From the NCBI GenBank assembly GCA_007378985.1, contig VMHB01000001.1, forward strand, positions 192,252 to 256,251: 64,000 bases of DNA, read 5' to 3'. Positions 8,393 to 51,470 of the stretch are shown piece by piece. Each line of letters begins with the position of its first letter. The stretch's first letter is position 1. This DNA comes from Parcubacteria group bacterium Greene0714_7. GTDB lineage: Bacteria > Patescibacteriota > Minisyncoccia > Phycocordibacterales > Phycocordibacteraceae. The notes under the pieces were generated by a model. That model did not search any database. It was not told where the DNA came from and worked only from the letters and a program-made list of their open reading frames with translations. Position numbers and translations under genes: made by a program.

Positions 8393-8500
8393 ATGATGAG
8401 CGGATTTAAACTTAAATCAGAATATAGTCCTGCAGGGGACCCCAGTACCAGACGCTCTTGCGTCGGTACGGGGCAGGTCATCCTTCATATAAAAACATGA
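8393..8500 (+). CDS. Upstream ORF (35 codons) whose first 16 codons mimic the uvrB N-terminus. Its TGA stop overlaps the uvrB ATG (ATGA).
   Basis: uORF MMSGFKLKSEYSPAGD… vs UvrB MSGFNLKSDYKPAGD…: 9 synonymous and 3 non-synonymous codon differences. It contains the conserved 38-nt element. Confidence 0.45.
   Translation: MMSGFKLKSEYSPAGDPSTRRSCVGTGQVILHIKT
8440..8477 (+). repeat. Conserved 38-nt start-proximal element (CCCCAGT-N21-ACGGGGCAGG), copy 1 of 3
   Basis: ccccagtaccagacgctcttgcgtcggtacggggcagg. Strong hairpin potential (CCCAGTACC/GGTACGGG outer, GACGC/GCGTC inner). Confidence 0.65.
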
Positions 8501-10581
8501 GTGGTTTTAATCTCAAATCTGACTACAAACCAGCTGGCGATCAACCGCGAGCCATCGAGGCGTTGGTTAAGGGTGTGAAAGACGGGGAGTCACATCAGAC
8601 ACTTCTTGGGGTTACCGGCTCGGGTAAAACATTCACTGTTGCAAATGTTATACAGCAGATTCAAAAGCCAACCTTAGTCATTGCACACAATAAAACACTC
8701 GCAGCGCAACTTACACAAGAGTATCGAGAATTTTTCCCTGAAAATGCGGTGCACTATTTTGTTTCTTACTACGACTACTATCAGCCAGAGGCATACATGC
8801 CGATGACTGATACCTACATTGAAAAAGAGGCTCAAATTAACGCTGAAATTGATCGTTTGCGCCATGCTTCTACTCAGGCACTTTTAACTCGGAGTGATGT
8901 CATTATTGTGGCATCCGTTTCCGCTATCTACGGTCTTGGTTCTCCTGAGCAATATAAAAGAGTCCATAGGAATATTAGGGTGGGTGAAAAATTCGAGCGT
9001 GCAGAATTTGTACGTGCTCTCATTGGGCTCCAGTTTGAGCGTACAAACGCCGACTTAACTCCGGGGACATTTAGAGCGGTAGGTGCGAACGTTGAGCTTA
9101 TGCCAGTCAATGAAGTAGCGGTGTACCGTATTCATCCAGAGCAAGGAAGAATCGCACACATTAGTAAGCTCAATGCTGTTTCCCGGGCTCTTGTTGACGA
9201 GCCAAAAGAATTTTTTCTTTTTCCTGCAAAACATTATGTTACCGATGAAGCTGATAGAGGAAGGGCGGTAGCAGATATACAAAAAGAACTTGATGTTCGT
9301 TTGGTCCAGCTTGAAGCTGAAGGAAAAATGCTGGAGGCAGAACGCCTGCGGAGGCGTACTCGCTACGACCTCGCCCTCATTCGTGAAATTGGATACTGCA
9401 ACGGCATTGAAAATTATTCTCGCCACTTTGATGGACGCAAAGCTGGAGAGCCTCCGTATACGCTTCTTTCGTATTTTCCACACAAAGCAGATGGAACGCC
9501 AGATTTCCTTACGGTCATTGATGAGTCACACGTCACTATTCCTCAGCTCCGTGCCATGTATGCAGGAGACCAGTCACGAAAAAAGATGCTGGTTGATTAC
9601 GGGTTTCGTTTGCCATCTGCTGCGGACAATCGCCCTTTAACATTTGCGGAATTTGAGAAAAGAGTTGGAGAAAAAGTGTATACCAGTGCAACGCCAGGAG
9701 TGTATGAGTTTGAGCATTCGGGTACACCAATCGAGCAAGTCATTCGACCTACGGGACTCATTGACCCTGAAATAATAATTCGCCCCGTAACGGGCACCAG
9801 TTCATCGAGTAGTCAGGTAGTTGATTTCATACAGGAGACCGTCTCGGTAGTAAAAGGAGGAGGGCGAGTGCTTGTCACTACACTGACGAAGAAGATGGCG
9901 GAAGACTTGTCGGAATTCTTAAAAGAAAAAAATATAAAAGCTGAGTATATTCATAGTGATATTAAAACGATTGACCGCATTACTATTCTCACTGAATTTC
10001 GCAAAGGGACCTTTGATTGCTTGGTTGGTGTGAACCTACTTCGTGAAGGGCTCGACCTACCTGAAGTTGAGCTTGTGGGAATACTTGATGCCGATAAGGA
10101 GGGATTTCTTCGCTCCGATACATCACTCATTCAGACTATTGGTCGCGCAGCTCGAAATGTTAATGGTCGGGTTATTCTCTATGCCGATGGAATGACTGGC
10201 TCTATGGAGCGTGCCATTGGAGAGACTAATCGTAGGCGTGCGGTACAGCTTGCCTACAATACAAAGCACGGCATCACACCAAAAACCATTCATAAGAACA
10301 TTAAAGACATTACGGAAACACTGCAATCAGAGAGAGCTGCGGCTATTACTATGCTTTTGGCAGTTGATGAGGATCGTACGCATGATCCTAAAGCCTTGAA
10401 GGCTCTTATTAGCGAGAAACGCCAGCAAATGGAAGATGCGGTTGAGGTTCTTGATTTTGAGACTGCCGCACTGCTGCGAGATGAGGTCTATAAACTTGAA
10501 GAAAAACTACCCGTGCCGAAAAAGCCTAAGCGTAAACCCAAATGGCCCAAGAAAGGTATGGTAATTGATTTAGAAGATTAG
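8497..10581 (+). CDS. uvrB: Excinuclease ABC subunit B
   Basis: Helicase motifs (GVTGSGKTF), the beta-hairpin region and a C-terminal UVR domain, with a Lys/Pro-rich tail. The six-frame ORF starts at 8458 in the same frame, but homology begins at MSGFNL (8497). Confidence 0.9.
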   Translation: MSGFNLKSDYKPAGDQPRAIEALVKGVKDGESHQTLLGVTGSGKTFTVANVIQQIQKPTLVIAHNKTLAAQLTQEYREFFPENAVHYFVSYYDYYQPEAYMPMTDTYIEKEAQINAEIDRLRHASTQALLTRSDVIIVASVSAIYGLGSPEQYKRVHRNIRVGEKFERAEFVRALIGLQFERTNADLTPGTFRAVGANVELMPVNEVAVYRIHPEQGRIAHISKLNAVSRALVDEPKEFFLFPAKHYVTDEADRGRAVADIQKELDVRLVQLEAEGKMLEAERLRRRTRYDLALIREIGYCNGIENYSRHFDGRKAGEPPYTLLSYFPHKADGTPDFLTVIDESHVTIPQLRAMYAGDQSRKKMLVDYGFRLPSAADNRPLTFAEFEKRVGEKVYTSATPGVYEFEHSGTPIEQVIRPTGLIDPEIIIRPVTGTSSSSSQVVDFIQETVSVVKGGGRVLVTTLTKKMAEDLSEFLKEKNIKAEYIHSDIKTIDRITILTEFRKGTFDCLVGVNLLREGLDLPEVELVGILDADKEGFLRSDTSLIQTIGRAARNVNGRVILYADGMTGSMERAIGETNRRRAVQLAYNTKHGITPKTIHKNIKDITETLQSERAAAITMLLAVDEDRTHDPKALKALISEKRQQMEDAVEVLDFETAALLRDEVYKLEEKLPVPKKPKRKPKWPKKGMVIDLED

Positions 10582-20621: not shown

Positions 20622-21767
20622 ATGTCACGGGTAAAAATTACGGAGTATAGAGCTAAGAAACTTATACTTGGGGACGCATATGCGGGTCGTTCCTTGTCGG
20701 GTATTTCTGATGTTGGGTTTACGAAACCCAACATGGTGGTGAAGGTTGATCAAGGGATTAAGAAGCGTTTTAAGCAGGGGCTTGTTGCGGTCAATGTTTC
20801 TTCAAAGGAGGCAGGGCAGAAAGTAAGGGAATGGGAAAAGCGAGGTTTTTCTCATTTTCTTGTTGAGCCGTATGTATCGCATGAGGAGTCTGAAGAGCAG
20901 TACCTTTTTTTAGAGCGGGTACGCACGGGGATACGAGTTCTACATGCTTCTTCGGGTGGTATTGATATCGAGGCACACCCAGAACTAGTGAAAACATATC
21001 TCATAAACCCGGCACTATCATATATGGTAGTGCCGGGCATCCCAGAAAAATTCTTGAAACATCTTGTGGAGGTGTTTGAAAAAAACTTTTTCTCTTTTCT
21101 TGAAATTAATCCACTTGTTGTTCGGGGAGATGAGGTATATATCCTCGATGCAGCGGTGCTCGTCGACAGCGCGGGAATATTTTTCGTCAAAAATGGATGG
21201 AACGAAGAAGACGTTGTTGAGGGAAAGGTACGACATATTGCTGAAGAAAAAGTACAGGCACTTCAAAAAACTACCCCTGCCTCCCTGAAACTCACCATTT
21301 TGCACCCTGATGGAGGTTTGTTTTTTCTGCTTTCAGGTGGTGGTGGAAGTATTGTTATTGCAGATGAGGCAGAACTTAATGGTGTGGGTCGCTCCATTGG
21401 TAATTATGGAGAATATAGCGGTGGTCCAACTCGAGAAGAAACACATCTCTACGCACGAGAGGTGATTCAGCTATTACTTAATTCACCTGCAAAGAAGAAG
21501 GCGCTCGTGATTGCTGGAGGTATTGCAAATTTTACTGATGTTAAGTCAACATTTAAGGGTATTGTTGATGCCTTGTCAGAGTGCGCGAGCACTCTTCGAG
21601 GAAAAGGTGTAAAAGTATTTGTGCGTCGTGGCGGACCGAATGAAATTGAAGGGCTTCTTTTTATGGAAGAGTATTTAAAAAAAGAAAAATTATTTGGTTC
21701 AGTGTATGGTTCTGGTGCAGTAATTACGAGTGCAGTTGATGATGCCATTGCATTTATAAAAAAATGA
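20622..21767 (+). CDS. aclB: ATP-citrate lyase beta (ATP-grasp) subunit
   Basis: Block-by-block match to the N-terminal half of ATP-citrate lyase (MVVKVDQGIKKRFKQGLVAVN; LEINPLVV…VYILDAAVLVDS; SLKLTILHPDGG…GGGGSIV…NYGEYSGGP; IAGGIANFTDVKSTFKGIV; VFVRRGGPN). Confidence 0.85.
   Translation: MSRVKITEYRAKKLILGDAYAGRSLSGISDVGFTKPNMVVKVDQGIKKRFKQGLVAVNVSSKEAGQKVREWEKRGFSHFLVEPYVSHEESEEQYLFLERVRTGIRVLHASSGGIDIEAHPELVKTYLINPALSYMVVPGIPEKFLKHLVEVFEKNFFSFLEINPLVVRGDEVYILDAAVLVDSAGIFFVKNGWNEEDVVEGKVRHIAEEKVQALQKTTPASLKLTILHPDGGLFFLLSGGGGSIVIADEAELNGVGRSIGNYGEYSGGPTREETHLYAREVIQLLLNSPAKKKALVIAGGIANFTDVKSTFKGIVDALSECASTLRGKGVKVFVRRGGPNEIEGLLFMEEYLKKEKLFGSVYGSGAVITSAVDDAIAFIKK
21007..21036. promoter_or_regulatory. 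Near-palindrome cccggCACTATCATATATGGTAGTGccggg inside aclB, resembling the yerC-associated operator motif
   Basis: Shares CACTATCATATATG with the 6319/6794 sites and ATATGG with the 52354/52877 sites. One mismatch from a perfect palindrome. Confidence 0.3.
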
Positions 21768-24257: not shown

Positions 24258-24323
24258 TTTCGACTCCATGACTCACTCAGAGCAAGCACCCGTGGACTAT
24301 TTTTCTAAACACTACAAAAGAGC

Positions 24324-24365
24324 CAGTATAGTATAAGTTAACGACCGTTAAATTATACTATACTG
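24324..24365. repeat. Palindromic element of the TGTATAGTATAA family (copy 1)
   Basis: cagtatagtataagttaacgaccgttaaattatactatactg: 13-nt perfect outer arms around a taacgaccgttaa core. Confidence 0.6.
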
Positions 24366-24409
24366 ATTGAAACTGCTTTTATTTTAGAATTAATTTTTTA
24401 CTCAATTTT

Positions 24410-24721
24410 TTATTTGGCCTTTTTTAAAAATTTGACGCTCAAAGGTGAAATGTTTGGATAGAGGCGTGCTAATTCTGTCGGGTCAGATTTATACGGTGTG
24501 AATGCTTCAATAGTTGCATCTGATGCGGTGCCTGGTCCAAGCCATACAGTATCCCCACCTTCATCAGTATGTCTTTCAATGTGAAATACTCGGTAGACAA
24601 TGCCGGGGAAAAAATGAGGAGCAAGAGAAATAAAGTCTTGCGCTGAGAGGGCTCGTAGTTTCACCCGATCTCCTTTTTGAAGAAAGAGATGTTCAGGTTT
24701 TCGGTGGTCTTTTTCTGACAT
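24410..24721 (-). CDS. Hypothetical protein (103 aa)
   Basis: ORF bracketed by two copies of the palindromic element. No recognised motif. Confidence 0.45.
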   Translation of the reverse strand: MSEKDHRKPEHLFLQKGDRVKLRALSAQDFISLAPHFFPGIVYRVFHIERHTDEGGDTVWLGPGTASDATIEAFTPYKSDPTELARLYPNISPLSVKFLKKAK

Positions 24722-24797
24722 AGATGCCGTTTATTATATCATTTTGATTTTTTAACTCTTCAGTAATGTAATTTTTAAGTATTATTAACCAATTGCC

Positions 24798-24837
24798 TGT
24801 ATAGTATAATTTAACGACCGTTAAATTATACTATACA
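24798..24837. repeat. Palindromic element of the TGTATAGTATAA family (copy 2), between divergent genes
   Basis: tgtatagtataatttaacgaccgttaaattatactataca: perfect 19-nt arms with the same taacgaccgttaa core as copy 1. Confidence 0.6.
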
Positions 24838-24876
24838 CCTTAATACTACTTAGCTTAGGCGGTATATAATAAAAAA

Positions 24877-25484: not shown

Positions 25485-25988
25485 TCACCACACCCATTTT
25501 ACTGATACAAAAGCAATTGCGAGAACACTAAGAAGTGTGATTCCTTGTAGTGCCATTAATATATATTTATGTGAACGTGCGACATGTGATTTTCTTTTAA
25601 GATATGCACGCCAACCTTGATGAATTAAAATTATATTCCCAGTTAGTGCAAAAATAAGTATTAATGCAGAGGTGTTGGTGGTGAACGCTAATGCGTCAAA
25701 CCCGTAGAGAGCTACACTCGCCCCCACTCCAACAAATAGTATGTCCAGTAGTGCATTTTCTGCATCCTCTACGAGGCCAGCCCCAAACTCAAGAGCTTCG
25801 TAGAGTACTGCTCCACCAGTGATTGCTATAAAAGCGTAGAGAGTGGACACCTCTAGAAACCACGCGAATGCTCCGAATGTTAATCCAGAAAATAGGTGCA
25901 CGAGCGACCAGAAATCAGCATAGCGACCATGCGCCCACCCGAAGTTTACGAGTTTTGAAGCTGTGCGTTCAAAGTTTAATTTCAGCAT
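25485..25988 (-). CDS. Hypothetical integral membrane protein
   Basis: Multiple hydrophobic helices. Start assumed at the internal M (MLKLNF…) to avoid overlap with the divergent gene; the six-frame ORF extends to 26156. Confidence 0.45.
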   Translation of the reverse strand: MLKLNFERTASKLVNFGWAHGRYADFWSLVHLFSGLTFGAFAWFLEVSTLYAFIAITGGAVLYEALEFGAGLVEDAENALLDILFVGVGASVALYGFDALAFTTNTSALILIFALTGNIILIHQGWRAYLKRKSHVARSHKYILMALQGITLLSVLAIAFVSVKWVW

Positions 25989-26061
25989 CTTCTCCCTAGT
26001 ATACCTTTCCATCTTAAAATATCGTGGTATTCTTTGCGCGTATTCTAAAGAAGAAATACCT

Positions 26062-26580
26062 ATGGACGAAAAACAATTGAACGGGGAGATACGCACTGAA
26101 AAGACTCCACGCACGGTGTATTTTTTTGAGTACCTGACGCGTTGGACGGGTTCCATCCCATCATTGATTGTTCACACAATTCTTTTCGGTGGTGCTTTTG
26201 CTCTTGGGTTCTTTCATGTAGCTCCGTGGGATTCTGTGCTTTTGGTATTGACGACATTAGTTTCTTTAGAAGCAATCTATCTTTCTTTGCTCATACAAAT
26301 GACTGTCAATAGACACTCAGAAAGCTTGAAGGAGGTTGGAGAAGACGTTGAGGGGATTCAGGAAGACATTGAAGAAATTACCGAAGACGTTGAGGGAATT
26401 CAGGAAGACATTGAAGAAATTACCGAAGACGTTGAGGGAATTCAGGAGGATGTTGAAGAAATGACCGAAGAAGATGCTGAAGACGCAGAATTAGAAAAGC
26501 GTCATCTCGTGAGCCTAGAGCAGTTAACAAAAGATGTACAACGGGTTTTACAGGACTTGGAGAAATTCAAGAAACAGTGA
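26062..26580 (+). CDS. Membrane protein (DUF1003-like) with acidic tandem-repeat C-terminus
   Basis: Two TM helices then (EDVEGIQEDIEEIT)x3 and a coiled-coil tail. Start assumed at MDEKQ. Confidence 0.55.
   Translation: MDEKQLNGEIRTEKTPRTVYFFEYLTRWTGSIPSLIVHTILFGGAFALGFFHVAPWDSVLLVLTTLVSLEAIYLSLLIQMTVNRHSESLKEVGEDVEGIQEDIEEITEDVEGIQEDIEEITEDVEGIQEDVEEMTEEDAEDAELEKRHLVSLEQLTKDVQRVLQDLEKFKKQ
26341..26466 (+). repeat. 3 x 42-bp near-perfect tandem repeat (in-frame, inside the CDS)
   Basis: gaagacgttgagggRattcaggaagacattgaagaaattacc repeated three times with 1-5 substitutions, plus a partial fourth unit. Confidence 0.9.
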
Positions 26581-28714: not shown

Positions 28715-30274
28715 ATGGACATCAGCATCATTGAACGCCTCAAGAAAGAAATTGAATCCTTTGCACCAAATGCAAAACCAACTGAAACGGGCATCGTGCG
28801 CAAGGTGGGTGATGGCATTGTTGAGATAGAAGGTTTGGATGAAGTGTCGATGGCCGAGATGGTTCGTTTTGACGAGGGTTCGGTATCTGATGTGAAAGCA
28901 ACTATTGCACATGAGGATACACTCTATGGTGTTGTATTGAACTTGGAAGAGAATACCGTAAAGGCAATCATCCTCGGGGATTCGTCACGCATTAAAGAGG
29001 GAATGCTTGTGCATCGCACAAAGAAACTTCTTTCAATTCCTGTAGGAGACGCGGTTATTGGTCGCATTGTTGATGCACTCGGAGTTCCTATAGATGGGAA
29101 AGGGCCAATCAAAGCAGATGCCACAAGTCCTATTGAGCGCGAAGCGTACGGCGTTATCGATAGAGGCCCAGTAAATGTACCAATGCACACCGGCATTAAA
29201 GCAATTGATTCATTAATTCCTATTGGTCGTGGACAGCGTGAACTCATCATTGGCGACAGAGGCACTGGTAAAACAACAGTTGCTATCGATGCAATTTTGA
29301 ACCAACTTAATGAACCAAAGGAGACACGCCCTATTTGTGTATATGTTGCTATTGGTCAAAAAGAATCAAAGACTGCCCGCATTGCAGCGATGCTTAAAGA
29401 GCGCGGTGCGATGGATTACACCATTGTGGTATCGGCTCCAGCATCAGCTTCAGCAGCATTCCAATTCTTGGCACCGTACGCTGGCGTAACTTTGGGTGAG
29501 TATTTCATGGACAAAGGCAGAGATGTTTTGGTTATCTACGATGATCTTTCCAAGCAAGCTGTTGCGTACCGACAACTTTCGCTCCTCCTTCGTCGTCCCC
29601 CTGGACGCGAGGCATATCCTGGAGACATTTTCTATCTCCACTCAAGACTTTTGGAACGAGCCGCAAAACTTTCTCCTGAAAAAGGAGGAGGCTCTCTTAC
29701 GGCGCTTCCTATTATTGAAACGCAAGAAGGCGACATCTCGGCGTACATTCCAACCAATGTTATTTCCATTACTGACGGTCAAATGTTCCTCGAGGCTGAT
29801 CTCTTCAATAAAGGAACACGCCCTGCAATCAATGTAGGTATTTCAGTTTCTCGTGTCGGTTCTGCCGCTCAAACAAAAGCTATGAAGAAGGTGTCGGGAC
29901 GCATCAAGCTCGACCTCGCACAGTTCCGTGAACTTGAAGCATTCATGCAATTCTCACAAGATCTCGATGCTGAAACGAAGAAGACCATTGATGGAGGTCG
30001 TCGTCTTTCGGCAATTCTGAACCAAAACAAAAACGCCCCAATTCCATTTGAGCGACAGGTTGTTGTTATGTATGCAGTCACTAACGGCTTCTTCGATACA
30101 TTTGGTGCTGAACAGATGAGTGAAATAGAAGCAAAGTTCCTCGCGTATTTGGATAGGGAAGCTAAAGGCGTTCTTGACGCTATTCGTACATCAAAAGAAA
30201 TAGCTAAAGACACGGAGGAGAAACTTAAGACTGCCATTCAGTCGTTTGTTTCAACTGTAGATGTGAAAAGCTAA
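28715..30274 (+). CDS. atpA: F0F1 ATP synthase subunit alpha
   Basis: Walker A GDRGTGKT and overall highly conserved alpha sequence. Confidence 0.95.
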   Translation: MDISIIERLKKEIESFAPNAKPTETGIVRKVGDGIVEIEGLDEVSMAEMVRFDEGSVSDVKATIAHEDTLYGVVLNLEENTVKAIILGDSSRIKEGMLVHRTKKLLSIPVGDAVIGRIVDALGVPIDGKGPIKADATSPIEREAYGVIDRGPVNVPMHTGIKAIDSLIPIGRGQRELIIGDRGTGKTTVAIDAILNQLNEPKETRPICVYVAIGQKESKTARIAAMLKERGAMDYTIVVSAPASASAAFQFLAPYAGVTLGEYFMDKGRDVLVIYDDLSKQAVAYRQLSLLLRRPPGREAYPGDIFYLHSRLLERAAKLSPEKGGGSLTALPIIETQEGDISAYIPTNVISITDGQMFLEADLFNKGTRPAINVGISVSRVGSAAQTKAMKKVSGRIKLDLAQFRELEAFMQFSQDLDAETKKTIDGGRRLSAILNQNKNAPIPFERQVVVMYAVTNGFFDTFGAEQMSEIEAKFLAYLDREAKGVLDAIRTSKEIAKDTEEKLKTAIQSFVSTVDVKS

Positions 30275-30308
30275 AACCTGATACCTGAAAGTTGACACCT
30301 AAAACCCC

Positions 30309-30413
30309 ATGTCTCTCAAAGATATCAAACTCAAAATAAAATCTGTTGACCCCAGTCGTAGAGCTGGAACAGCTCACAACGGGGCAGGCCGTACTCACAT
30401 ACTATGTCGTTAA
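30309..30413 (+). CDS. Upstream ORF (34 codons) whose first 14 codons are a synonymously recoded copy of the atpG N-terminus. Its stop lies 3 codons inside atpG.
   Basis: MSLKDIKLKIKSVD (identical peptide to AtpG 1-14, 9/42 nt differ) then PSRRAGTAHNGAGRTHILCR. Contains the conserved element. Confidence 0.45.
   Translation: MSLKDIKLKIKSVDPSRRAGTAHNGAGRTHILCR
30350..30388 (+). repeat. Conserved 39-nt start-proximal element (CCCCAGT-N22-ACGGGGCAGG), copy 2 of 3
   Basis: ccccagtcgtagagctggaacagctcacaacggggcagg with an internal GAGCTG/CAGCTC hairpin. Confidence 0.65.
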
Positions 30414-31321
30414 AGGATATTAAATTGAAAATAAAGTCCGTGGACAGAACACGGAAAGTTACGAAGGCAATGGAATCTGTTTCTGCGGTGAAGATGCGCA
30501 AAAGTCAGATACGCGCAATTACCTCGAGGCCCTACGCTTCTTCCGCGCTCTCCATTCTGGAGCGCATGAGTGTTTCTCTCGCGTCTCTTAAACATCCGTT
30601 AACTGTTGTGCGACCTGTCAAAAAAGCAGCAATAGTTGTGGTTACCAGCGACAAGGGACTCTGCGGCATATTAAATGCAGCTGTTGTGAAATCTGCCTAC
30701 ACTCTTGCAGAATCATTGGAACTCCCTCGTGAAGCAATTTCTATCTACGCTTTTGGACGCAAAGGGGCTGAGTTTTTTGATCGCCGTGGATATCAAATTT
30801 TAGGAAAGTTTGAAAACGTTTCTGACGATGTTTCTGTTGCTGACCTAGCTCTTGTCTCAAATGATATCGCCCGTGCATTTCTAAATAAAGAATTTGACCG
30901 TGTTGATGTTGTATATACCAACTTTAAATCTACGTTTGAGCAAAGTGCTATTGCCCATAAAGTACTTCCACTCTCCATTGAAACAGTATCTGAAATAGTG
31001 AGCGGTATTGTGCCAGTAAAAGGAAAGTTTGCTGTGGTAGAGCGAGTGAAAGGTCCTGCATCATACACGGCAGAGCCATCTACTGAAGTTGTCGTAGACG
31101 CCCTCATTCCACGCCTTGTCAGTGTACTTTTCTTCCACGCACTTTTGGAGTCAAAAGCGTCAGAGCATTCAGCTCGTATGGTTGCCATGAAGAATGCGTC
31201 AGATAAATCTCGAGATCTTTCTAAGCTACTGACAAGAAAATACAACAAAGCTCGTCAGGCGCTTATTACCAGAGAAGTTTCCGAGATTGTTGGAGGTATC
31301 GAGGCCATGGCAACGAGTTAG
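30404..31321 (+). CDS. atpG: F0F1 ATP synthase subunit gamma
   Basis: Gamma N- and C-terminal coiled-coil helices (…ARMVAMKNASD…ITREVSEIVGG). Confidence 0.9.
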   Translation: MSLKDIKLKIKSVDRTRKVTKAMESVSAVKMRKSQIRAITSRPYASSALSILERMSVSLASLKHPLTVVRPVKKAAIVVVTSDKGLCGILNAAVVKSAYTLAESLELPREAISIYAFGRKGAEFFDRRGYQILGKFENVSDDVSVADLALVSNDIARAFLNKEFDRVDVVYTNFKSTFEQSAIAHKVLPLSIETVSEIVSGIVPVKGKFAVVERVKGPASYTAEPSTEVVVDALIPRLVSVLFFHALLESKASEHSARMVAMKNASDKSRDLSKLLTRKYNKARQALITREVSEIVGGIEAMATS

Positions 31322-31354
31322 AAAGAATAGAAGAATTAAGGTAAAATCAAAAAC

Positions 31355-31530
31355 ATGACACTTCTAGCTGAAAGAGTACATAGAAAAAATTCTGACAAAG
31401 GATTGAAAACAGTGGTGGAAACTGACGGAGTTCGAAAAAGTTCGTGGCGTCTTACTGAGGCTGAGCAGGCTATCTTAAGGGTATTAAATGGCGAGGCAAC
31501 TGTAGGGCCTGTTTGGGATATAAAATAAAA
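31355..31530 (+). CDS. Hypothetical 58-aa protein inserted between atpG and atpD
   Basis: ORF MTLLAERVHRKNSDKGLKTVVETDGVRKSSWRLTEAEQAILRVLNGEATVGPVWDIK. Not in the supplied ORF track, which has a 60-aa cutoff. Confidence 0.3.
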
Positions 31531-31532
31531 AT

Positions 31533-31724
31533 ATGGCATCACCAGAAAGAAAGGGAAGATTAGACATTAGTGAGGTTCCATTTCGTGGGCGCCTTGCTTC
31601 CGCTGGTGGTTTTGATGGGAGAGGTCGAGGTGGCGGAGGTAGACTTGAGGATGAGAAATTTAGACCTCGCCTCCTTCAAGGAGGATTAAGTTCATCTTCA
31701 GATCCGGAAAATCAAAAAGAATAA
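31533..31724 (+). CDS. Hypothetical Gly/Arg-rich 63-aa protein inserted between atpG and atpD
   Basis: Low-complexity RGRGGGGR segment. Could be non-coding. Confidence 0.25.
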   Translation: MASPERKGRLDISEVPFRGRLASAGGFDGRGRGGGGRLEDEKFRPRLLQGGLSSSSDPENQKE

Positions 31725-31770
31725 AAGAAATTAATATATTAAAAGTTGCAACCTATAACCTGACACCTAA

Positions 31771-33156
<1,386 letters not shown>

Positions 33157-33316
33157 CTTCCTATGGCTTTACTCAATCAGGCAGAAAGTTTGCGGGCTCC
33201 TCAAAAGCACACGGGGGGTGGTAACTGGCTAGAGGCATATCTAAATATGTTGTTTAAGGTGTCAGGACCGATGATGGATTTTCTCTTACTAACTACTCCA
33301 AAAAAGAATTAGGCTT

Positions 33317-33547
33317 ATGTTGGTTGTTATTGCAAAAGTTCATGAGAATCTTTTTTCAGGGGAAGCACTCTCGCTTTCTGCTATGACCACAGAAGGGAAG
33401 CTCACTATACTCCCCAAGCACGAGCCCTTTGTGGCGAATTTGAAGGCGGGAGAGGTGACAGTAAAGACAACATCAGGAGAGCAAAAATTTGATATTACTG
33501 GTGGTGTTCTTGAAGTTTCCAACAATCAGGTAACGGTGCTTTTGTAA
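33317..33547 (+). CDS. atpC: F0F1 ATP synthase subunit epsilon, N-terminal beta-sandwich only (76 aa)
   Basis: Epsilon N-domain pattern (…FSGEA…LTILPKHEPF…L.AGEV…). The C-terminal helical hairpin is absent. Confidence 0.75.
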   Translation: MLVVIAKVHENLFSGEALSLSAMTTEGKLTILPKHEPFVANLKAGEVTVKTTSGEQKFDITGGVLEVSNNQVTVLL

Positions 33548-33548
33548 T

Positions 33549-33740
33549 ATGGCTAAGCGTGCAACTGCTGTAGAGGCAAATTTGGCGGATTTTTGGAGTG
33601 TAGTTAGCCATCCTCTCAATTTCGAAAATCCAGCTACACGAGACACTGTTCGAAAAATTGCTTTCAGTGCCATGAAGAAATGTAATAGAGAAGATGCTCT
33701 AAAAATACAAGCTTTTTTGGATGAGTATAACTGTGGTTGA
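33549..33740 (+). CDS. Hypothetical small protein
   Basis: 63-aa ORF directly after atpC. No motif. Confidence 0.25.
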   Translation: MAKRATAVEANLADFWSVVSHPLNFENPATRDTVRKIAFSAMKKCNREDALKIQAFLDEYNCG

Positions 33741-33765
33741 CAAAATTGTATTTTGGAGTATAAAT
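33737..33765 (+). promoter_or_regulatory. Sigma70-like promoter (TTGACA-N16-TATAAAT) driving an apparently leaderless small ORF
   Basis: Consensus elements. The ATG at 33771 is 6-7 nt after the -10. Confidence 0.4.
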
Positions 33766-33770
33766 AAGAA

Positions 33771-33935
33771 ATGGCAAGTAAGAAACCAAGAGAAGCTCGG
33801 GAAAAAATATCCTGGTGTGCACAGCTATATTGTCTGCTTCCGGGTCAAGTAGTTTGTATTCATTGCAGAGATATATACTGTTTCTTTCATTATGCTATTC
33901 ACCGAGCAATCAGTAGTTGTTCAGTAAAATTCTAA
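33771..33935 (+). CDS. Hypothetical Cys/His-rich 54-aa protein
   Basis: MASKKPREAREKISWCAQLYCLLPGQVVCIHCRDIYCFFHYAIHRAISSCSVKF, bracketed by a promoter and a terminator. Confidence 0.3.
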   Translation: MASKKPREAREKISWCAQLYCLLPGQVVCIHCRDIYCFFHYAIHRAISSCSVKF

Positions 33936-33981: not shown

Positions 33982-34078
33982 AATTATTTTTTTGAAACAC
34001 TAACCTTCGTTATTAAGAAGGATTCCAGAATTGTTTGTAGTGCGAGGGGAGTCCTCATGCTACATAAGTGTAAGTTTT

Positions 34079-37000
34079 TTAGAGAGGGGAAGAAGGGTTC
34101 CAGAATTGTTTCCCCGGGTTTCGGTAGACGAGGATTGGTGTGAGTACGAGTGTCAGAATCATTGCAAATGAGAGACCAAACATAATAGCGAAGGCAAGAG
34201 GTCCCCATAGTGCAGATGCGCCAGCGAGAGGAATCATACCAATGACGGTAGTGATGGTAGTGAGAACAATTGGTCGAAGCCTGCTTGCTGAACCGTCAAC
34301 AACTACCTCCTCCAGTGTCTTTCCTTCGGGATTCTTCATGCGGATTATGATTGAGTCCACAAGAATTATGGCGTGGTTGATTATGACACCAGCAAGTGCA
34401 ATGACACCTAAGAGAGATGAGAACGAGAGCGGTTGTCCCGTAAGTGCAAGGCCACCTAATACTCCAATGAGAGAAAGAATGACGAGCATGAGGAGATAGA
34501 ACGAATAGCGGAATGAATTGAATTCGAGTACTAGAACTGCAAGCATAAGCACCAAACCAGCGAGGAAGGCAATTCCCATTTCGCTGAATGACTTATTTAC
34601 ATCTTCCGTTTCGCCTCCGATTTTCATTACGACACCAGTAGGCAAAGTTTCTTTTTCAATAGCTTTTTTGAATGCGGTAGATACCTCAACAGCTGTTGCT
34701 CCTCCTGCAGTGTAGCTAGAGACAGTAGCAATGTTTTTTTGGTCTTGGCGCCTAATAACTGCGTTTGATTTTTCAATAGAAGGGGAGAGAATTGAGCCTA
34801 ACAGTACTGTGCCTCGAGGCGTTTTTACAGAGAGGTTTAAGAGCGTATTGATATCTGCTTTTGTAGTATCTTCCGGTTCTTGCCAAGAAGGGTTGAGGTT
34901 TGTGGAGACAAGAACGTCGATGTCCTCGGTGTCATTTTTTATAGTGGTTGCAACAACACCTGAGACTGCAGTTCGGAGAATGCTTGCTACCTGTAGAGGA
35001 GAGAGCCCCACTTGTGATGCCTTGGCGCGGTCAATAGTGAGGGCAAACTGTGTTCCATCGTCCTTAATAGATGTAGCTACTTCAGCAGTACCTTTAATGG
35101 AGCGCATTATTTTTTCGCCTGTAGCTACTGAGCGCTCTAAGTCATCAAGATTGTCTCCAGAGAAGGTTATAAGAACTGGGGCGCCTGAAGGTGGTCCGCC
35201 AGCTGGCTCGAATGCATTTACAGAAAATTCATGGAAAACAGAAACTTTGTTTCTGAGCTCTTCAGTAATTTGTGTTGAAGTTTGTTTTCGATCTTCTTTC
35301 GGTACAAGCTTGATGGTGATGTTTGCGTATTTGGCACCGCTGGATTGATTTTGACTTAATCCTGATGAGGCACCAACAGTTGTTACAAATGAGCTGATAC
35401 GCGAATCGTTATAAAGAAGCTCTTCTACACCTCGGGTGGCAAGATCAGTCACTTCAAGTGGTGTGCCTTGCTTTGCTTCTACTTCAAGATATACATAATC
35501 GGCATCCTCTGATGGGAAAAAGAGCACTTTCACAATGCCTGACACTGGTAAGAGAATTGCTACGACGAGAGCGAGACCCAATCCAAGCATGAATCTATTT
35601 TGGAATTTTCTATTTTTCAAAACTCCCGTAAGAAAGCTTCGGTACCATACTTGCGCTTTGTTGTTCCACTCTTCTTGTATGATTTGAAGTTTGCCAGTGC
35701 TTCGCTTGGTGAGATTTATTGCAATTAATGGCACTAAACCGAGTGCTACAAAAATCGAAGCAATAAGAACGGTAATGATTGTAAAGGGGATTGATTGAAT
35801 GTATTGACCTACAATACCTGAAATAAAGAAGAGTGGCGCAAACATAACGACAGTCGTCATAGTGCCTGCGGTTAGGGGCCTGGCATATTCGCGAATCGCT
35901 TCTTTTGCTGCACGAATTGGATCCCCAAATTTCTGATAGCGCGTGTGAATTGCTTCCGTCACCACGATGCCAGAATCAACAAGAATGCCGATTGCAAGAA
36001 TGAGTGCAAAGAGGGAGACGAAATTTATGGTGTTACCTGAAGCGTTCAGTCCTATGAATGCAATAACGAAAGAAAGAGGAATTGAAAGTCCTGCAACGAG
36101 AGATTCTCGCCAGCCAATTGTTAACACAAGACAGATCATGACGAGAGCGATTGTTTCTAAGCCAACTTTAGTAAGTTCGCTCAAACTTTTCTGAACTTCT
36201 TCTCCAAGGTCAATCGAGATATCGGTAGTAATACCCAAAAGCATTGTTCCCGAGAGCGAGTTTAGTTTTTCTTTTGCTGCTGATGCTGTTTTGAAAATAT
36301 TTCCTCCAGCTTTTTTATATACTGAAAGGGTAATTGCAGGCTCTGCTGGAGCGCCTTTAGTAGAAACGCGAGATACACTTTTTGCTTTCTCAAGACCGTT
36401 AACGATGTCCGCTACATCGCGAAGATAAATTGGGTTGCCATCTAAATTCCCGATACTTGTTTGCGCGAGTTCTTCTGGATCATTCAAATCGCCCTTAAAG
36501 GCAACAGAATACTCAATGGCATCGACAGTTATAGTGCCAACAGGTAAAGAACTATTGGACGCACTTAGGGCAGATACTACGTCCGTAAGTGATAGTCCGT
36601 ATGATTGTAAAGCTTCTTTGCGAACTATTATGTTCGCTTCTCGTTCGCGGGTACCGCTGATTTCCACTCTGGACACACCAGATACTTGTTCAAGTTCATC
36701 CTGCACATCTTTGGCAAGACGAGTAAATTCTGTTGGTGGAAGTCCGCCAGAAAGAGACACTATAAAAATTGGTTGATCGTTCGCTGTGATGCGGAGTACT
36801 ACAGGTTCGTCTGCATCTTTAGGAAGTTTTGGTTTTGCACGGTCAACCGCATCTTTAACATCCTGAATTGATTTATCAATATTTGCCGATGCTTCAAATT
36901 CAGCACTCACTACAGAGACTCCCTCGCGAGAAGAGGAAGTGAGTTTGTGAAGGTTCTCAACAGTGCCAACCTCTTTCTCTATTTCCTTTGTTATGAGTTT

Positions 37001-37183
37001 TTCAGTGTCTGCCGCGGAGGCACCACGAAGCGTTGTTTGAATAATGGCAATAGGAATTGTTACCTCTGGGGCATTCTCTTTTGGTATTGCTAAAACGGCT
37101 ACAAATCCCGCCACCACAAGAGCGATTATCACTAGAATAGTGAACTGCCTGCGTTCAATGAAAAAGTTCCAAAATTTATGCAT
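34079..37183 (-). CDS. RND family efflux transporter permease (AcrB/HAE-like)
   Basis: 1034 aa, 12-TM architecture with two large periplasmic loops and conserved RND blocks. Confidence 0.9.
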   Translation of the reverse strand: MHKFWNFFIERRQFTILVIIALVVAGFVAVLAIPKENAPEVTIPIAIIQTTLRGASAADTEKLITKEIEKEVGTVENLHKLTSSSREGVSVVSAEFEASANIDKSIQDVKDAVDRAKPKLPKDADEPVVLRITANDQPIFIVSLSGGLPPTEFTRLAKDVQDELEQVSGVSRVEISGTREREANIIVRKEALQSYGLSLTDVVSALSASNSSLPVGTITVDAIEYSVAFKGDLNDPEELAQTSIGNLDGNPIYLRDVADIVNGLEKAKSVSRVSTKGAPAEPAITLSVYKKAGGNIFKTASAAKEKLNSLSGTMLLGITTDISIDLGEEVQKSLSELTKVGLETIALVMICLVLTIGWRESLVAGLSIPLSFVIAFIGLNASGNTINFVSLFALILAIGILVDSGIVVTEAIHTRYQKFGDPIRAAKEAIREYARPLTAGTMTTVVMFAPLFFISGIVGQYIQSIPFTIITVLIASIFVALGLVPLIAINLTKRSTGKLQIIQEEWNNKAQVWYRSFLTGVLKNRKFQNRFMLGLGLALVVAILLPVSGIVKVLFFPSEDADYVYLEVEAKQGTPLEVTDLATRGVEELLYNDSRISSFVTTVGASSGLSQNQSSGAKYANITIKLVPKEDRKQTSTQITEELRNKVSVFHEFSVNAFEPAGGPPSGAPVLITFSGDNLDDLERSVATGEKIMRSIKGTAEVATSIKDDGTQFALTIDRAKASQVGLSPLQVASILRTAVSGVVATTIKNDTEDIDVLVSTNLNPSWQEPEDTTKADINTLLNLSVKTPRGTVLLGSILSPSIEKSNAVIRRQDQKNIATVSSYTAGGATAVEVSTAFKKAIEKETLPTGVVMKIGGETEDVNKSFSEMGIAFLAGLVLMLAVLVLEFNSFRYSFYLLMLVILSLIGVLGGLALTGQPLSFSSLLGVIALAGVIINHAIILVDSIIIRMKNPEGKTLEEVVVDGSASRLRPIVLTTITTVIGMIPLAGASALWGPLAFAIMFGLSFAMILTLVLTPILVYRNPGKQFWNPSSPL

Positions 37184-40011: not shown

Positions 40012-40184
40012 GAATTGCTGATTGAAGTCGAGTGTTTCATACACTAACTAGCCAATTTTTTATTTAGGAGATATTAGAAAAAAGAAAAATGGAAACAGTG
40101 GGTTGATATAGTTCAACAAATAGGAAGTAGGGCAAAATAAATTAGGACCCTCTAATAATTAATGCCCCGTGTCTCCGAAAAACA

Positions 40185-40228
40185 CCTGTATAGTATAAAA
40201 TCACGGTCGTGATTTTATACTATACAGG
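40185..40228. repeat. Palindromic element of the TGTATAGTATAA family (copy 3), followed by a T-run, so likely also a terminator
   Basis: cctgtatagtataaaatcacggtcgtgattttatactatacagg is a perfect 44-nt palindrome. Core cacggtcgtg is the reverse complement of the cgaccg-type core in copies 1-2. It is followed by ttttaaatttttttttt. Confidence 0.6.
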
Positions 40229-40287
40229 GTTTTAAATTTTTTTTTTAGGCTAGCCACTAAAGCCTAAACCCTATACACTGCTCCTTT

Positions 40288-42653: not shown

Positions 42654-42755
42654 ATGGGAAGTTACGACCGCCCCAGTACCACCGGGCTCCGCATGGCTAC
42701 GGGGCAGGAAGTGGTTCGATATATAATCGTGTTTTTGACATTTTCAGTACCCTAA
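42654..42755 (+). CDS. Upstream ORF (33 codons) beginning MGSYDR, a recoded copy of the LeuS N-terminus MQSYDH. Its stop is 6 nt before the leuS ATG.
   Basis: Ser encoded AGT vs TCA (a codon-family switch) and Tyr-Asp identical. Contains the conserved element. Confidence 0.4.
   Translation: MGSYDRPSTTGLRMATGQEVVRYIIVFLTFSVP
42671..42708 (+). repeat. Conserved 38-nt start-proximal element (CCCCAGT-N21-ACGGGGCAGG), copy 3 of 3
   Basis: ccccagtaccaccgggctccgcatggctacggggcagg. Its first 10 nt are identical to copy 1. Confidence 0.65.
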
Positions 42756-42761
42756 ATCTGC

Positions 42762-45173
42762 ATGCAATCATACGACCACAAAAAAATAGAGAAAAAATGG
42801 CGAAAGCTTTGGGAAGAGTCAGGTATTTACAAGACTAGTGAAAATTCATCAAAGCCAAAGCACTATGTTCTGGACATGTTTCCGTACCCATCGGCGTTAG
42901 GTCTTCACACTGGTCATGTTGAAGGGTATGCGGCGACCGATATTTACAGTCGTTTTAAACGAATGAAGGGGTTCAGTGTGCTCCATCCTATGGGATGGGA
43001 TGCGTTCGGTCTCCCTGCAGAAAACTATGCAATAAAAACAAATACGCCACCTCGAGAAACTACAAATAAGGCAATTGATAACTTCCGCAATCAAATCCAA
43101 CGCTTAGGCCTTTCGTATGACTGGTCACGAGAAATAGGCACTCACAATCCTGACTATTATAAGTGGACACAGTGGTTGTTTTTGTTCTTGTTTGAAAATG
43201 GTCTTGCGGAAAAACGCATGGGTAAGGTGAATTGGTGTCCCACCGACCAAACAGTGCTCGCCAATGAACAAACAGTGAGTGAGAGTGGAGAAAAGGGTGT
43301 GTGTGTTCGTTGCGGTACAAAAATAATTCAACGCGAACTTTCACAGTGGTTTTTCAAAATTACTGATTTTGCTGATGTATTAATTGATGATTTGAATGGT
43401 GTTGATTGGCCAGAGTCTACAAAAATAAATCAACGAAATTGGATTGGTAGAAAAGAAGGAGTCATTGTTACTCATAAAGTGAAAGGGCTGGATGTATCGC
43501 TCGACACGTTTAGTGCCTATCCTGCATGGCTTTTTGCGGATACCTATATGGTACTTGCTCCTGAGCACCCAATAGTAAAAACTCTTGTGGAAGGTACTGA
43601 AGTACAAAAGAGTGTTGAGGATTTTGTGAAGTGTATGCAGGAGGTCACAACGATTGATCGCACAAACGCAACAACGGAGAAAGAGGGTATTTTTACAGGA
43701 CGCTTCGCTATTGACTCTCTCTCCGGTAAAGAATTTCCTATTTGGATTGCTAACTTTGCTTTGATGGATTTTGGAACAGGTATTATTCGTTGCTCTTCAC
43801 ACGATATCCGCGACCTTACATTTGCTAAAAAATACGGAATCCCTTTGAGTGAGGTAGTCGAGAGAGAAAGTCCTGATATGCCCGTTGATGCCCATGCTAA
43901 TAAGGGTGTTTTGAAAGACTCGGGTCCGTTCACTGGTCGCACTATTAATAATGAGTTAATTCAAGAAATAATTGCGTGGATAGAAAGTAATGGATATGGG
44001 CATGCACAGACTACATACCGTCTTCGTGATTGGCTTATTTCTCGTCAACGATATTGGGGGGCGCCTATTCCAGTAGTGTATGACCCAGAAGGGAAAGCGC
44101 ATGGAGTTCCCAAAGAGCACTTGCCGTGGCTCCTTCCTGAAGATGTAGAGTATTTACCGAAGGGAACTTCACCGCTCGGAACCTCAAAGGAACTTTTGGA
44201 ACGAACAGAGAAAATATTTGGGAAAGGGTGGAAGCCAGAGATCGACACTATGGACACTTTCGTGTGTTCTTCGTGGTATTTTCTTCGATTTGCCGATCCA
44301 CATAATGAGATTGAGTTTGCGTCGAAAGAAGTAGTAAAAAAATGGCTTCCCGTTGACCTCTACATGGGAGGTGCTGAACATACAGTTTTGCATCTTATGT
44401 ACGCCCGCTTTATTACCAAGGCCCTGCAGAAGTTTGGATACATAGAGTTTGGTGAGCCATTCTCCAAGCTCCGTCACCAAGGGATGATTCTTGCTGAAGA
44501 TGGAACCAAGATGTCTAAGTCGAAAGGTAATGTCATAAACCCTGACGAAATTAGTGAACTCTACGGTGCGGACACGCTACGAATTTATGAAATGTTCATG
44601 GGTCCTCTTGAAGCTATGAAGCCATGGAGCACCAAAAATATTATTGGCTCACGGAGATTTTTGGAGCGTGTCTGGAGGGTACAAGAAAAGGTGAGTCAAG
44701 GTGCAACTTTGAGTGCAAGCGCTGATGCCACTCTACAGCAAACAATTAAAAAAGTAGCTGAAGATATCGAGCTCCTTAGTTTAAACACGGCAGTGAGTCA
44801 GATGATGATTTGTGTTAATGCTTTTGAAAAAGAAGAAAAAATACCTGCTGAAAGCTATGAGAGCATGCTGTTGGTACTTGCCCCGTTTGCACCTCATATG
44901 ACAGAAGAATTATGGGAAACTTTGGGTCATACTTCTTCAATTCATCAAGAAAATTGGCCAGTGTTTGATGAAAGTAAGCTCGAAAAAAATGAAGTAGTAA
45001 TGGCTGTTCAGGTTGGTGGGAAAGTAAAGGGCACCATTGTCATTCCTCGCGGAGCTACAGAAGAAGAAGTAATTGAGTTAGTACGAAAAGACGTCAAACT
45101 TGGTGGGGTAGTTCCTCAAAACCCATCCCGCATGATATTCGTTCCCAATAGGGTCGTTAACTTCATACCCTAG
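42762..45173 (+). CDS. leuS: Leucyl-tRNA synthetase
   Basis: HIGH region (LGLHTGHVEGY), KMSKS and the CP1 editing and anticodon-binding domains. 803 aa. Confidence 0.95.
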   Translation: MQSYDHKKIEKKWRKLWEESGIYKTSENSSKPKHYVLDMFPYPSALGLHTGHVEGYAATDIYSRFKRMKGFSVLHPMGWDAFGLPAENYAIKTNTPPRETTNKAIDNFRNQIQRLGLSYDWSREIGTHNPDYYKWTQWLFLFLFENGLAEKRMGKVNWCPTDQTVLANEQTVSESGEKGVCVRCGTKIIQRELSQWFFKITDFADVLIDDLNGVDWPESTKINQRNWIGRKEGVIVTHKVKGLDVSLDTFSAYPAWLFADTYMVLAPEHPIVKTLVEGTEVQKSVEDFVKCMQEVTTIDRTNATTEKEGIFTGRFAIDSLSGKEFPIWIANFALMDFGTGIIRCSSHDIRDLTFAKKYGIPLSEVVERESPDMPVDAHANKGVLKDSGPFTGRTINNELIQEIIAWIESNGYGHAQTTYRLRDWLISRQRYWGAPIPVVYDPEGKAHGVPKEHLPWLLPEDVEYLPKGTSPLGTSKELLERTEKIFGKGWKPEIDTMDTFVCSSWYFLRFADPHNEIEFASKEVVKKWLPVDLYMGGAEHTVLHLMYARFITKALQKFGYIEFGEPFSKLRHQGMILAEDGTKMSKSKGNVINPDEISELYGADTLRIYEMFMGPLEAMKPWSTKNIIGSRRFLERVWRVQEKVSQGATLSASADATLQQTIKKVAEDIELLSLNTAVSQMMICVNAFEKEEKIPAESYESMLLVLAPFAPHMTEELWETLGHTSSIHQENWPVFDESKLEKNEVVMAVQVGGKVKGTIVIPRGATEEEVIELVRKDVKLGGVVPQNPSRMIFVPNRVVNFIP

Positions 45174-51446: not shown

Positions 51447-51470
51447 CATTGTATTTTTTCACAAAGCATT

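Follow-up and report, generated by a model that had tools for sequence, protein, structure and literature searches.

A short hairpin beside a duplicated atpG start in a Patescibacteria genome, a probable gene-end replacement cassette

Introduction

Integrative elements that carry a substitute gene end, such as the prophages and islands that target tRNA genes, or SXT, which enters the 5' end of prfC, keep their target intact by means of an element-borne copy of the lost gene end. These elements are 10–100 kb long, encode an integrase and have a defined att core. The REP/RAYT elements and the IS200/IS605 PATEs belong to a different kind; they are short, imperfect and bulged hairpins with a conserved foot and tail, which have no ORF, are present in multiple copies and insert precisely, without target duplication. 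Rickettsia palindromic elements (RPE) and gene-invading MITEs are small palindromic selfish DNAs found in protein and RNA genes of reduced genomes; the RPEs stay in frame and are translated within the protein. In fungal mitochondria, Paquin, Laforest and Lang reportedly described in 1994 that atp6 of Allomyces is a hybrid gene, in which the insertion of a free-standing homing endonuclease brought in a foreign gene terminus.

The locus presented here is part of a stretch of 64 kb, referred to as the window, from a Patescibacteria (Parcubacteria/Paceibacteria) bacterium. In this window the gene atpG is preceded by a copy of its own start and by a short hairpin, that we call E. We consider it probable that an ORF-less mobile hairpin, associated with a gene-end replacement cassette, displaced the ancestral start of atpG, and that the unit was acquired laterally. 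The anatomy of the locus, the precise insertion of the hairpin, the ancestral nature of the upstream copy, the recurrence and polarity of the arrangement, its absence from close relatives and, at uvrB and leuS, the different ancestry and the sharp end of the patch are directly shown by the sequences.

Anatomy of the atpG locus

The components of the locus are the following (x is the ancestral sequence, of which x1 and x2 are the parts at either side of E):

28715–30274, + strand: atpA (ATP synthase alpha), the upstream gene, from the ORF list; Pfam-annotated orthologues occupy the same position in relatives
30309–30349, + strand: x1, the displaced ancestral 5' end of atpG (ATG to GTTGA, codons 1–14), with the ancestral leader upstream, from the comparison with the relative L142
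30350–30388, + strand: E, a 39-nt hairpin CCCCAGT-N22-ACGGGGCAGG, a precise insertion without target duplication, from the pattern, the fold, the covariation and the empty site
30389–30396, + strand: x2, 8 nt CCGTACTC, where the ancestral atpG frame (D-R-T) is resumed 3' of E, identical to GAC CGT ACT C of L142
30397–30403, + strand: linker ACATACT, from the pseudo-fragment to the functional start, without counterpart in relatives
30404–30454, + strand: patch, the first 51 nt of the functional atpG, recoded relative to x, from the comparison with x and L142
30404–31321, + strand: functional atpG, 305 aa, from the ORF list and protein homologues
30309–30413, + strand: uORF of 34 aa, from the ancestral ATG and in frame through E, with its TAA at 30411–30413, 7 nt past the first base of the real ATG

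A leader of 34 nt separates atpA from the upstream copy of the atpG start (copy 1, ATGTCTCTCAAAGATATCAAACTCAAAATAAAATCTGTTGAC, 30309–30350), and a GC-rich hairpin followed by 15 nt separates copy 1 from the start of atpG, ATGTCGTTAAAGGATATTAAATTGAAAATAAAGTCCGTGGAC. Both copies (30309–30350 and 30404–30445, with an offset of 95 nt) are translated to MSLKDIKLKIKSVD, which confirms the identity of the two peptides that had been noticed from the sequence alone. The number of nucleotide differences had been given as 9 of 42 and is actually 10 of 42; all of them are synonymous, as had been stated. Over the 50 bases that can be compared between x and the patch (which has the sequence ACATACTATGTCGTTAAAGGATATTAAATTGAAAATAAAGTCCGTGGACAGAACACGG) there are 13 differences, again all synonymous, and these include two-step changes, i.e., CGT to AGA and CTC to TTA or TTG. 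The pair of MSLKDIKLKIKSVD segments is unique in the 64-kb window when non-tandem pairs are scanned in six frames (at least seven identical residues, within 400 nt, more than two base differences and no tandem repeat), and a looser scan revealed a second such pair, at uvrB. The position of the uORF stop just inside atpG (start at 30404) and the resemblance of the start context of copy 1 to that of atpD, both pointed out in the sequence-only reading, are present. Full-length AtpG homologues begin with MSLKD. The aligned part of AtpG from the window (96% of the query) shows 100% identity to the protein of Parcubacteria group bacterium Greene0714_7, whose record is annotated with 293 aa. Shorter annotated AtpG proteins (283 aa) were considered as a sign of insertions that had not been rescued, and this was ruled out given that only the start calls differ.

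The 39-nt element that had been recognized between the two copies is indeed there; however, it begins one base earlier than had been given, and it was placed between atpA and atpG, whereas the hairpin lies inside the atpG coding sequence, where it splits codon 14 after GTTGA. It folds as a bulged hairpin with -17.1 kcal/mol (z = -3.7). The exact 39-mer and its core occur a single time in the window, and the relatives of this hairpin are found only through the pattern of its two invariant ends.

The atpG module is found base for base, with the same E, linker and patch, in three independent assemblies from other samples (L268–L270), therefore it is not an assembly artefact, a possibility that had already been judged remote; the strain that shares it shows approx. 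95% ANI to the window. An assembly or binning chimera that joined the atpG starts of two strains would explain why the two copies resemble two alleles, but it is hardly conceivable given these assemblies, and given that the same architecture and the same element are present at three loci of the window and in dozens of unrelated assemblies.

Empty sites in relatives

Junctions of atpA and atpG free of the module were found in the relatives L142, L143, L001–L003 and L144, in which 13–85 nt join the two genes without E (AtpG is 78–98% identical). In L142, the closest of them, the junction is ...tgacacctaaaacccc ATGTCTCTCAAGGATATAAAAATCAAAATAAAATCTGTTGACCGTACTCG..., that is, x1 plus x2 of the window minus E. 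Read at the atpG start, L142 shows ...tgacacctaaaacccc ATGTCTCTCAAGGATATAAAAATCAAAATAAAATCTGTTGACCGTACTCGTAAAGTT, and the window without positions 30350–30388 shows ...tgacacctaaaacccc ATGTCTCTCAAAGATATCAAACTCAAAATAAAATCTGTTGA/CCGTACTC followed by ACATACT and the ATG; hence the removal of E restores the ancestral GTTGA/CCGTACTC (here and below a slash marks the insertion point). The window and L142 have the proximal leader tgacacctaaaacccc in common without a single difference, and x1 plus x2 differ from the native atpG start of L142 in 4 of 50 nt. For the functional atpG, the first 50 nt differ from L142 in 12 positions and the rest of the gene by 14%.

The suggestion that copy 1 sits at the ancestral start position is well supported by L142, where the leader and the first 50 nt are the same and no element is present. 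The interpretation of copy 1 as an N-terminal mimic did not hold; according to the relatives without E, it is a displaced pseudo-start and not an evolved decoy. The perfect amino acid match of copy 1 is due to its ancestry, and the differences are all synonymous because the functional start is a copy that evolved separately. The divergence of the atpG patch is 18–24% from the three nearest relatives and up to 28% from L003, with no lineage clearly closest. Since the rest of atpG is already approx. 14% diverged from the nearest relatives, uvrB and leuS show the foreign origin of the patch and its boundary more clearly than atpG does. E was absent from about 141 kb of the relatives' DNA, and the 64-kb window has three copies.

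Identity to L142 falls from 92–97% to 84–90% in the region from approx. 30000 to 33900 (3' end of atpA, atpG, atpD and atpC), which suggests that this divergent block may be a recombinant tract with its right edge near a duplication at 34015–34111. This duplication consists of a 22-nt direct repeat, AAACAATTCTGGAAYCCTTCTT, that flanks a unique spacer of 53 nt at the 3' end of a gene for an RND pump (34079–37183, - strand). The repeat copy joined to the gene has no stop codon, which adds the residues SPL to the protein, and the original ...KQFWNPS ending with its stop codon is kept in the distal copy. The 75-nt insertion is absent from L142 and from the strain L268 with approx. 95% ANI, and the 53-nt spacer, which is not an E element, has no match in any of the fetched loci.

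The E hairpin family

The consensus of E is CCCCAGT-N(20-28)-ACGGGGCAGG, with a length of 35–46 nt and no ORF. In the structure CCCC pairs with GGGG, an A is bulged and GU is paired to AC, while the inner part of the stem varies. The stem covaries: in 27 distinct members of 39 nt, 93.8% of the cells are paired and 8 of the 15 pairs show compensatory changes, and the covariation score was 0.446 versus 0.115 in shuffled sequences, with none of 500 shuffles as high. Likewise, the E copies of atpG and uvrB fold far better than shuffled sequence. The view that the element belongs to a family was correct, since three copies were found in the window, at uvrB, atpG and leuS. The length of E is 38, 39 or 41 nt; it is 38 nt, and hence out of frame, at uvrB and leuS, and 39 nt, in frame, at atpG. 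Given this variable length the reading frame is not conserved, and it is the nucleic-acid structure that is conserved rather than a peptide.

At gathering thresholds, Rfam detected only four tRNAs in the window. For the region 30200–30500, only two matches at chance level appeared with an E-value of up to 10, and 18 E-bearing loci gave tRNAs only. The pattern of the two ends is found at more than 120 loci of species-representative genomes, many of which are chance matches in GC-rich genomes. Well-folded E loci are present in many lineages of Patescibacteria and also in Cloacimonadota, Desulfobacterota, Planctomycetota and others. A stricter pattern, made for the subfamilies of the Patescibacteria type, is found in more than 120 metagenome contigs and, among viral contigs, in only one; other E subfamilies occur on a few viral contigs. 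The E family is widespread and unannotated, mainly in Patescibacteria but also in other phyla. In the literature searched, which included searches with the motif strings, there is no description of the E motif or of this architecture.

Regarding the E loci outside Patescibacteria (L040, L057, L013, L031, L044, L056 and L123), all are intergenic, and E is typically followed by heptamer iterons (CACGGAT/CGCGGAT/CGCAGAT, with approx. 10-nt spacing) or by tandem GGGGCAGG units. In L041 there are two tandem copies of E, and in L044 an inverted pair separated by approx. 320 nt.

A target-site duplication is absent; in 143 of 192 copies E is not flanked by a repeat, and the target sequence itself explains the cases with 2–3 nt. 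Evidence of precise insertion comes from the empty sites of L142 and, for uvrB, of L145.

Sister modules at uvrB and leuS

The other two modules of the window are:

8393–8550, + strand: uvrB module, with x1 8393/8396–8439, E 8440–8477, x2 8478–8484, linker 8485–8496 and patch 8497–8550
42654–42846, + strand: leuS module, with x1 42654–42670, E 42671–42708, linker 42709–42761 and patch at about 42762–42846

According to the two-end pattern, the three E copies of the window are all on the + strand, each just within the 5' end of a + strand gene, and each is preceded by a short ORF that starts like the downstream gene. At uvrB the start peptides are MSGFKLKSEYSPAGD for the short ORF and MSGFNLKSDYKPAGD for the gene, and at leuS these are MGSYD and MQSYD, respectively. 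For UvrB and LeuRS, the window proteins show 100% identity to their counterparts in Parcubacteria group bacterium Greene0714_7. Relatives that are 85–98% identical in nucleotide sequence around the three loci have neither the duplication nor E, and in all three modules copy 1 matches the closest relative without E.

The E-less relative L145 is 97–98% identical to the window around uvrB, and copy 1 with its flank up to E is 97% identical. In contrast, the functional gene differs from L145 in approx. 19 of its first 54 nt, and then in only 8 of the next 306. At sites of nt 4–54 where L145 and the distant relative L146 differ, the window has the base of L146 at 10 of 11, whereas within nt 55–600 it has the base of L145 at 110 of 120 informative sites. 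Two of the three differences between copy 1 and L145 are those nearest to E, and both are in the state of L146. At leuS, x1 ATGGGAAGTTACGACC matches the native start of L267 (ATGGGTAGTTACGACC) in 15 of 16 bases, and the functional LeuRS differs from that of L267 in 9 of the first 28 residues and then in none of the following 100. The patch thus ends sharply at both genes and its ancestry is different from that of the gene body; as judged from these comparisons, the functional start of uvrB and leuS is a short patch with a history of its own, and copy 1 is the resident sequence. Each copy would have had its own past as a real gene start in a different lineage, and only recently would the two have come to lie next to each other. 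With such separate histories, the synonymous-only pattern is explained even if the uORF peptide is not under selection.

At atpG (GAC/GAC) and at uvrB (GAC/GAT) the last codon of each copy is one for Asp. These codons, together with the 39 nt of E that are in frame at atpG, could favor the idea that E is removed or skipped at the level of RNA or of the ribosome (a mini-intron, or a GAC-to-GAC hop like that of T4 gene 60), copy 1 being the real N-terminus. This is very improbable: at uvrB and leuS the 38 nt of E break the frame, E corresponds to no ribozyme or intron model, there is no stop codon at the take-off site, the same architecture is present at tRNA genes and antisense to genes, and after the removal of E alone the frame still ends at 30413. 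Bypassing of the gene-60 type (byp) was also rejected as a candidate system because, in spite of the matching GAC/GAC codons, there is no stop after the take-off, the downstream copy begins with an ATG of its own and is complete at the N-terminus, and there are cases in tRNA genes.

Recurrence, targets and polarity

Recurrence of the arrangement was evaluated in 192 analysable E copies by removing E, comparing the flanks with the nearby DNA and scoring a significant second copy. At least 27 of the 192 are located in a truncated gene or tRNA end with an intact copy on the 3' side of E; this second copy lies 6–190 nt downstream of E and spans the insertion point. For the mirror image, i.e., the intact copy 5' of E, no clear case was found among the 192 copies and there are three weak candidates. 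Four of the modules are at the 3' ends of long genes of the opposite strand; therefore, the rule is geometric, and the intact copy is always on the ACGGGGCAGG side of E. The logic of a peptide mimic or a uORF does not account for the modules in which the same architecture involves a tRNA gene or the 3' end of a gene on the other strand.

The targets of E are strongly conserved motifs near gene ends. These include the motif IIAH/IDHGK of translational GTPases in four genomes, MKxKKGD/KV of rplX in two, PAGD/QP of uvrB, and motifs of MetRS, AlaRS and MiaB. In tRNA genes, the targets are D-loops when E is in sense orientation, and T-loops or anticodon arms when it is antisense. In locus L167 (6169–6209), a paralogue without E of the same 72-nt sequence is located approx. 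1.4 kb upstream on the same contig, with 94% identity across the insertion point, and constitutes an internal 'empty site'. Full-length versions bearing an ORF were sought as duplicates at 0.4–5 kb from E, and none were found.

Some of the pairs are 100% identical, such as a 54-nt segment of tRNA-Val (L029), 46 nt of tRNA-Ile (L122), L133 and L174; others are 70–80% identical, like the modules of the window. The identical pairs indicate that duplication in situ also occurs, so that lateral import is not the sole route. At atpG, an old tandem duplication in situ of the gene start, with a later insertion of E and purifying selection on both copies for a functional uORF peptide, would be in line with such pairs and with the 10–13 differences between the copies being all synonymous. 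Nevertheless, we regard it as unlikely, since the relatives with 85–98% identity have neither the duplication nor E, copy 1 is nearly identical to the relatives and the patch is not, and the uvrB patch carries alleles of a distant lineage and ends abruptly. Moreover, the sequence 3' of E decays within 2–5 codons into unrelated residues, therefore the uORF product is not a conserved protein.

Other repeats in the window

Several repeats different from E were observed. Two TrpR-like ORFs (6358–6786, + strand, and 52390–52830, - strand) are each bracketed by their own palindrome of approx. 23 nt, CACTATCATATATGATAGTG and TATTTCCATATATGGAAATA; the sites are 6327–6349, 6791–6813 and 21010–21032 for the first, and 52360–52383, 52826–52849 and 52883–52906 for the second. 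These palindromes could be autoregulatory operators or make up a small cassette. Another palindrome of 40–57 nt, GCCWGTATAGTATAA...TTATACTATAC, has three copies (24322–24378, 24795–24851 and 40184–40240), two of which are around the ORF 24410–24721; a related sequence is present in relatives. Finally, a 21/42-nt tandem repeat at 26320–26476 encodes acidic repeats of the EDVEGIQEDIEEIT type within the ORF 25963–26580.

Restart of translation

Only 2 of 42 genes in the window have Shine-Dalgarno sites, and many ATG codons have a TATAAT-like box 3–7 nt upstream (for instance 42740–42761, 8380–8395 and 24860–24876), one of which is contained in the uvrB linker. The position of these boxes suggests that leaderless mRNAs may be common here. 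In 8 of 10 N-terminal modules, including the three of the window, the stop of the ORF that begins at the old start is within -9 to +7 nt of the real ATG; it overlaps the ATG as ATGA at uvrB, and is at +7 nt at atpG and at -9 nt at leuS. In the reading favored here, atpG would be translated from the ATG of the patch. Ribosomes or transcripts that use the old start would traverse E, and those ribosomes would finish at the uORF stop that overlaps the new ATG and restart there, which is probable in an organism without Shine-Dalgarno sites. Coupling of termination and reinitiation through the uORF, which the sequence-only reading had raised, is then plausible; given that AT-rich linkers by themselves also give early stops, this step is an inference.

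The sequence-only reading went further and viewed the locus as a dedicated regulatory leader, in which a uORF-encoded N-terminal mimic and a hairpin RNA switch control atpG by translational coupling. The scarcity of Shine-Dalgarno sites, the distance of the uORF stops to the ATG in those 8 of 10 modules and a stable and conserved hairpin all agree with it. However, close relatives express the same genes without the module, and the same element and architecture are present at tRNA genes, antisense to genes, at the 3' side of genes and, in other phyla, in intergenic DNA. Besides, the frame through E is not conserved (38, 39 or 41 nt), no Rfam family matches, and copy 1 is a plain ancestral start. 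A role as a dedicated leader seems therefore improbable.

Origin and spread of the modules

On the basis of these results, we favor the reading that a mobile hairpin and a replacement gene end account for the locus. E would have entered a conserved motif in the first codons of atpG by a precise insertion, and the patch would be a second copy of the first 51 nt, placed 3' of E behind a 7-nt linker and in frame with an untouched gene body; atpG would survive the insertion because the patch restores its start. The upstream 'mimic' would then be the resident gene start, now displaced, and the patch would have an evolutionary history of its own. Most likely, the unit (E, a few target bases, the linker and the patch) was already present in another lineage and was received from it by recombination; this would have been a gene conversion around the conserved target motif, either homing-like or mediated by transformation. 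E itself may be a non-autonomous mobile hairpin that inserts precisely, as REP or the single-strand elements of the IS200/IS605 type do. When it hits a tRNA gene, or the first or last codons of a gene that is essential, survival would require a spare gene end beside it. The lateral transfer of the whole unit, the mechanism of recombination, an enzyme acting in trans and the translational coupling are what we infer from the observations described above.

The three modules of the window look like recent imports of pre-existing cassettes, in view of the empty sites, the resident copy 1, the foreign patch with sharp ends near the insertion site and the location of the targets in conserved motifs. 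The short conversion tracts around the site fit the repair of a break in the target, as in homing; alternatively, DNA taken up by the cell may have recombined in the ordinary way, within the limits of the conserved motif. At atpG and uvrB the divergent patch ends near the same gene coordinate as x2, which would not be expected from simple random crossovers and counts against our reading. Filled and empty alleles exist at atpG, uvrB and leuS, a presence/absence polymorphism of the homing type; at uvrB, a short co-conversion is indicated by the two copy 1 differences nearest to E and by the 54-nt patch with bases of a distant lineage, and the same insertion site is used in rplX and GTPase genes of different genomes. 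We put forward, as a tentative and still doubtful proposal, that the E modules are a new class of ORF-less homing elements, in which a hairpin of approx. 40 nt invades conserved motifs in the end regions of essential protein and tRNA genes across bacterial phyla, the host is spared by a spare gene end on the 3' side instead of by splicing, and the element spreads between lineages as a gene-specific cassette by means of a putative trans-acting nuclease or recombinase that recognizes the invariant foot of the hairpin. A Campbell-type single crossover of a small circle was ruled out, since the functional copy at uvrB is non-resident over the whole 54 nt, and a reading of the module as attC was also rejected.

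No transposase, integrase, reverse transcriptase or nuclease linked to E was found in the window, where 20 ORFs were annotated with Pfam, or near 88 E loci, nor was there a candidate homing nuclease in cis to E. Within approx. 4 kb of these 88 loci no relevant protein family is shared; the only recurrent cluster, an arsenic-resistance operon, corresponds to GC-rich chance matches. In the window, two adjacent nuclease-like genes at 50613–52307, one with ATP-cone and Mrr_cat domains (Mrr-like) and the other of the PD-(D/E)XK type, have no evident link to E. A pattern specific for the atpG module gave no matches in the JGI metagenomes, and a donor with this module was not found.

If this reading is correct, the E modules would represent a third way for selfish DNA to reside inside essential genes, besides RNA splicing (introns) and protein splicing (inteins), and one in which a gene end is replaced by an element without coding capacity. 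It would also explain why Patescibacteria genomes show odd duplicated starts, short ORFs that are spurious and start calls in the wrong place, and would point to an enzyme with a conserved hairpin, of DNA or RNA, as its substrate. The signature CCCCAGT…ACGGGGCAGG could serve to find recent recombination between uncultured bacterial lineages, and the modules would offer natural test cases for the restart of translation in bacteria without Shine-Dalgarno sites. These results are of interest for research on mobile DNA and on Patescibacteria genomes.

Comparison with described systems

None of the Rfam families (ribozymes, introns, riboswitches and leaders) has a covariance model that matches E. 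The possibility of a diversity-generating retroelement was discarded, because the 13 differences between x and the patch are found at T, C and A alike, only two of them at A, and there is no reverse transcriptase nearby. E is not a classical MITE either, since it is a single hairpin of 35–46 nt without terminal inverted repeats and target-site duplication, nor is the module an integrase island, given that no integrase was found, there is no identical core at both junctions and the insert is approx. 100 nt.

The REP/RAYT elements and the IS200/IS605 PATEs share with E the short, imperfect and bulged hairpin, the conserved foot and tail, the lack of an ORF, the multiple copies and the precise insertion without target duplication. 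In addition, the E copies of the window are on the G-rich strand, the expected lagging-strand template, as for elements of these types. E differs from them in its consensus, in being a single hairpin instead of a pair of left and right ends, and in its location inside coding sequences and tRNA genes with a restored gene end on the 3' side; a Y1 (HUH) transposase was found neither in the window nor within approx. 4 kb of 88 loci. With RPEs and gene-invading MITEs, E has in common the invasion of protein and RNA genes of reduced genomes by a small palindrome; nevertheless, the RPEs are kept within the translated protein, and an E module cuts the old gene end short and provides another in its place.

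The arrangement around the hairpin is similar to other systems. As with integrative elements, the resident gene end persists as a pseudo-fragment across the element from the intact gene, but the insert of the E module is about 100–190 nt and carries no gene. The homing insertions of fungal mitochondria show the same combination of a hybrid gene, a foreign gene end, a displaced pseudo-fragment and conserved sites of conserved genes; in contrast with those elements, which encode the endonuclease that drives them, the E modules are ORF-less. The stop of the uORF that overlaps or abuts the real start resembles the overlapping stop and start of termination-reinitiation, although the upstream ORF, unlike that of usual coupled cistrons, is here a relic of the same gene. 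Hairpin mobile elements and insertions that replace gene ends are known kinds, and we rate the E module as a variant that combines both and that is undescribed in the literature searched.
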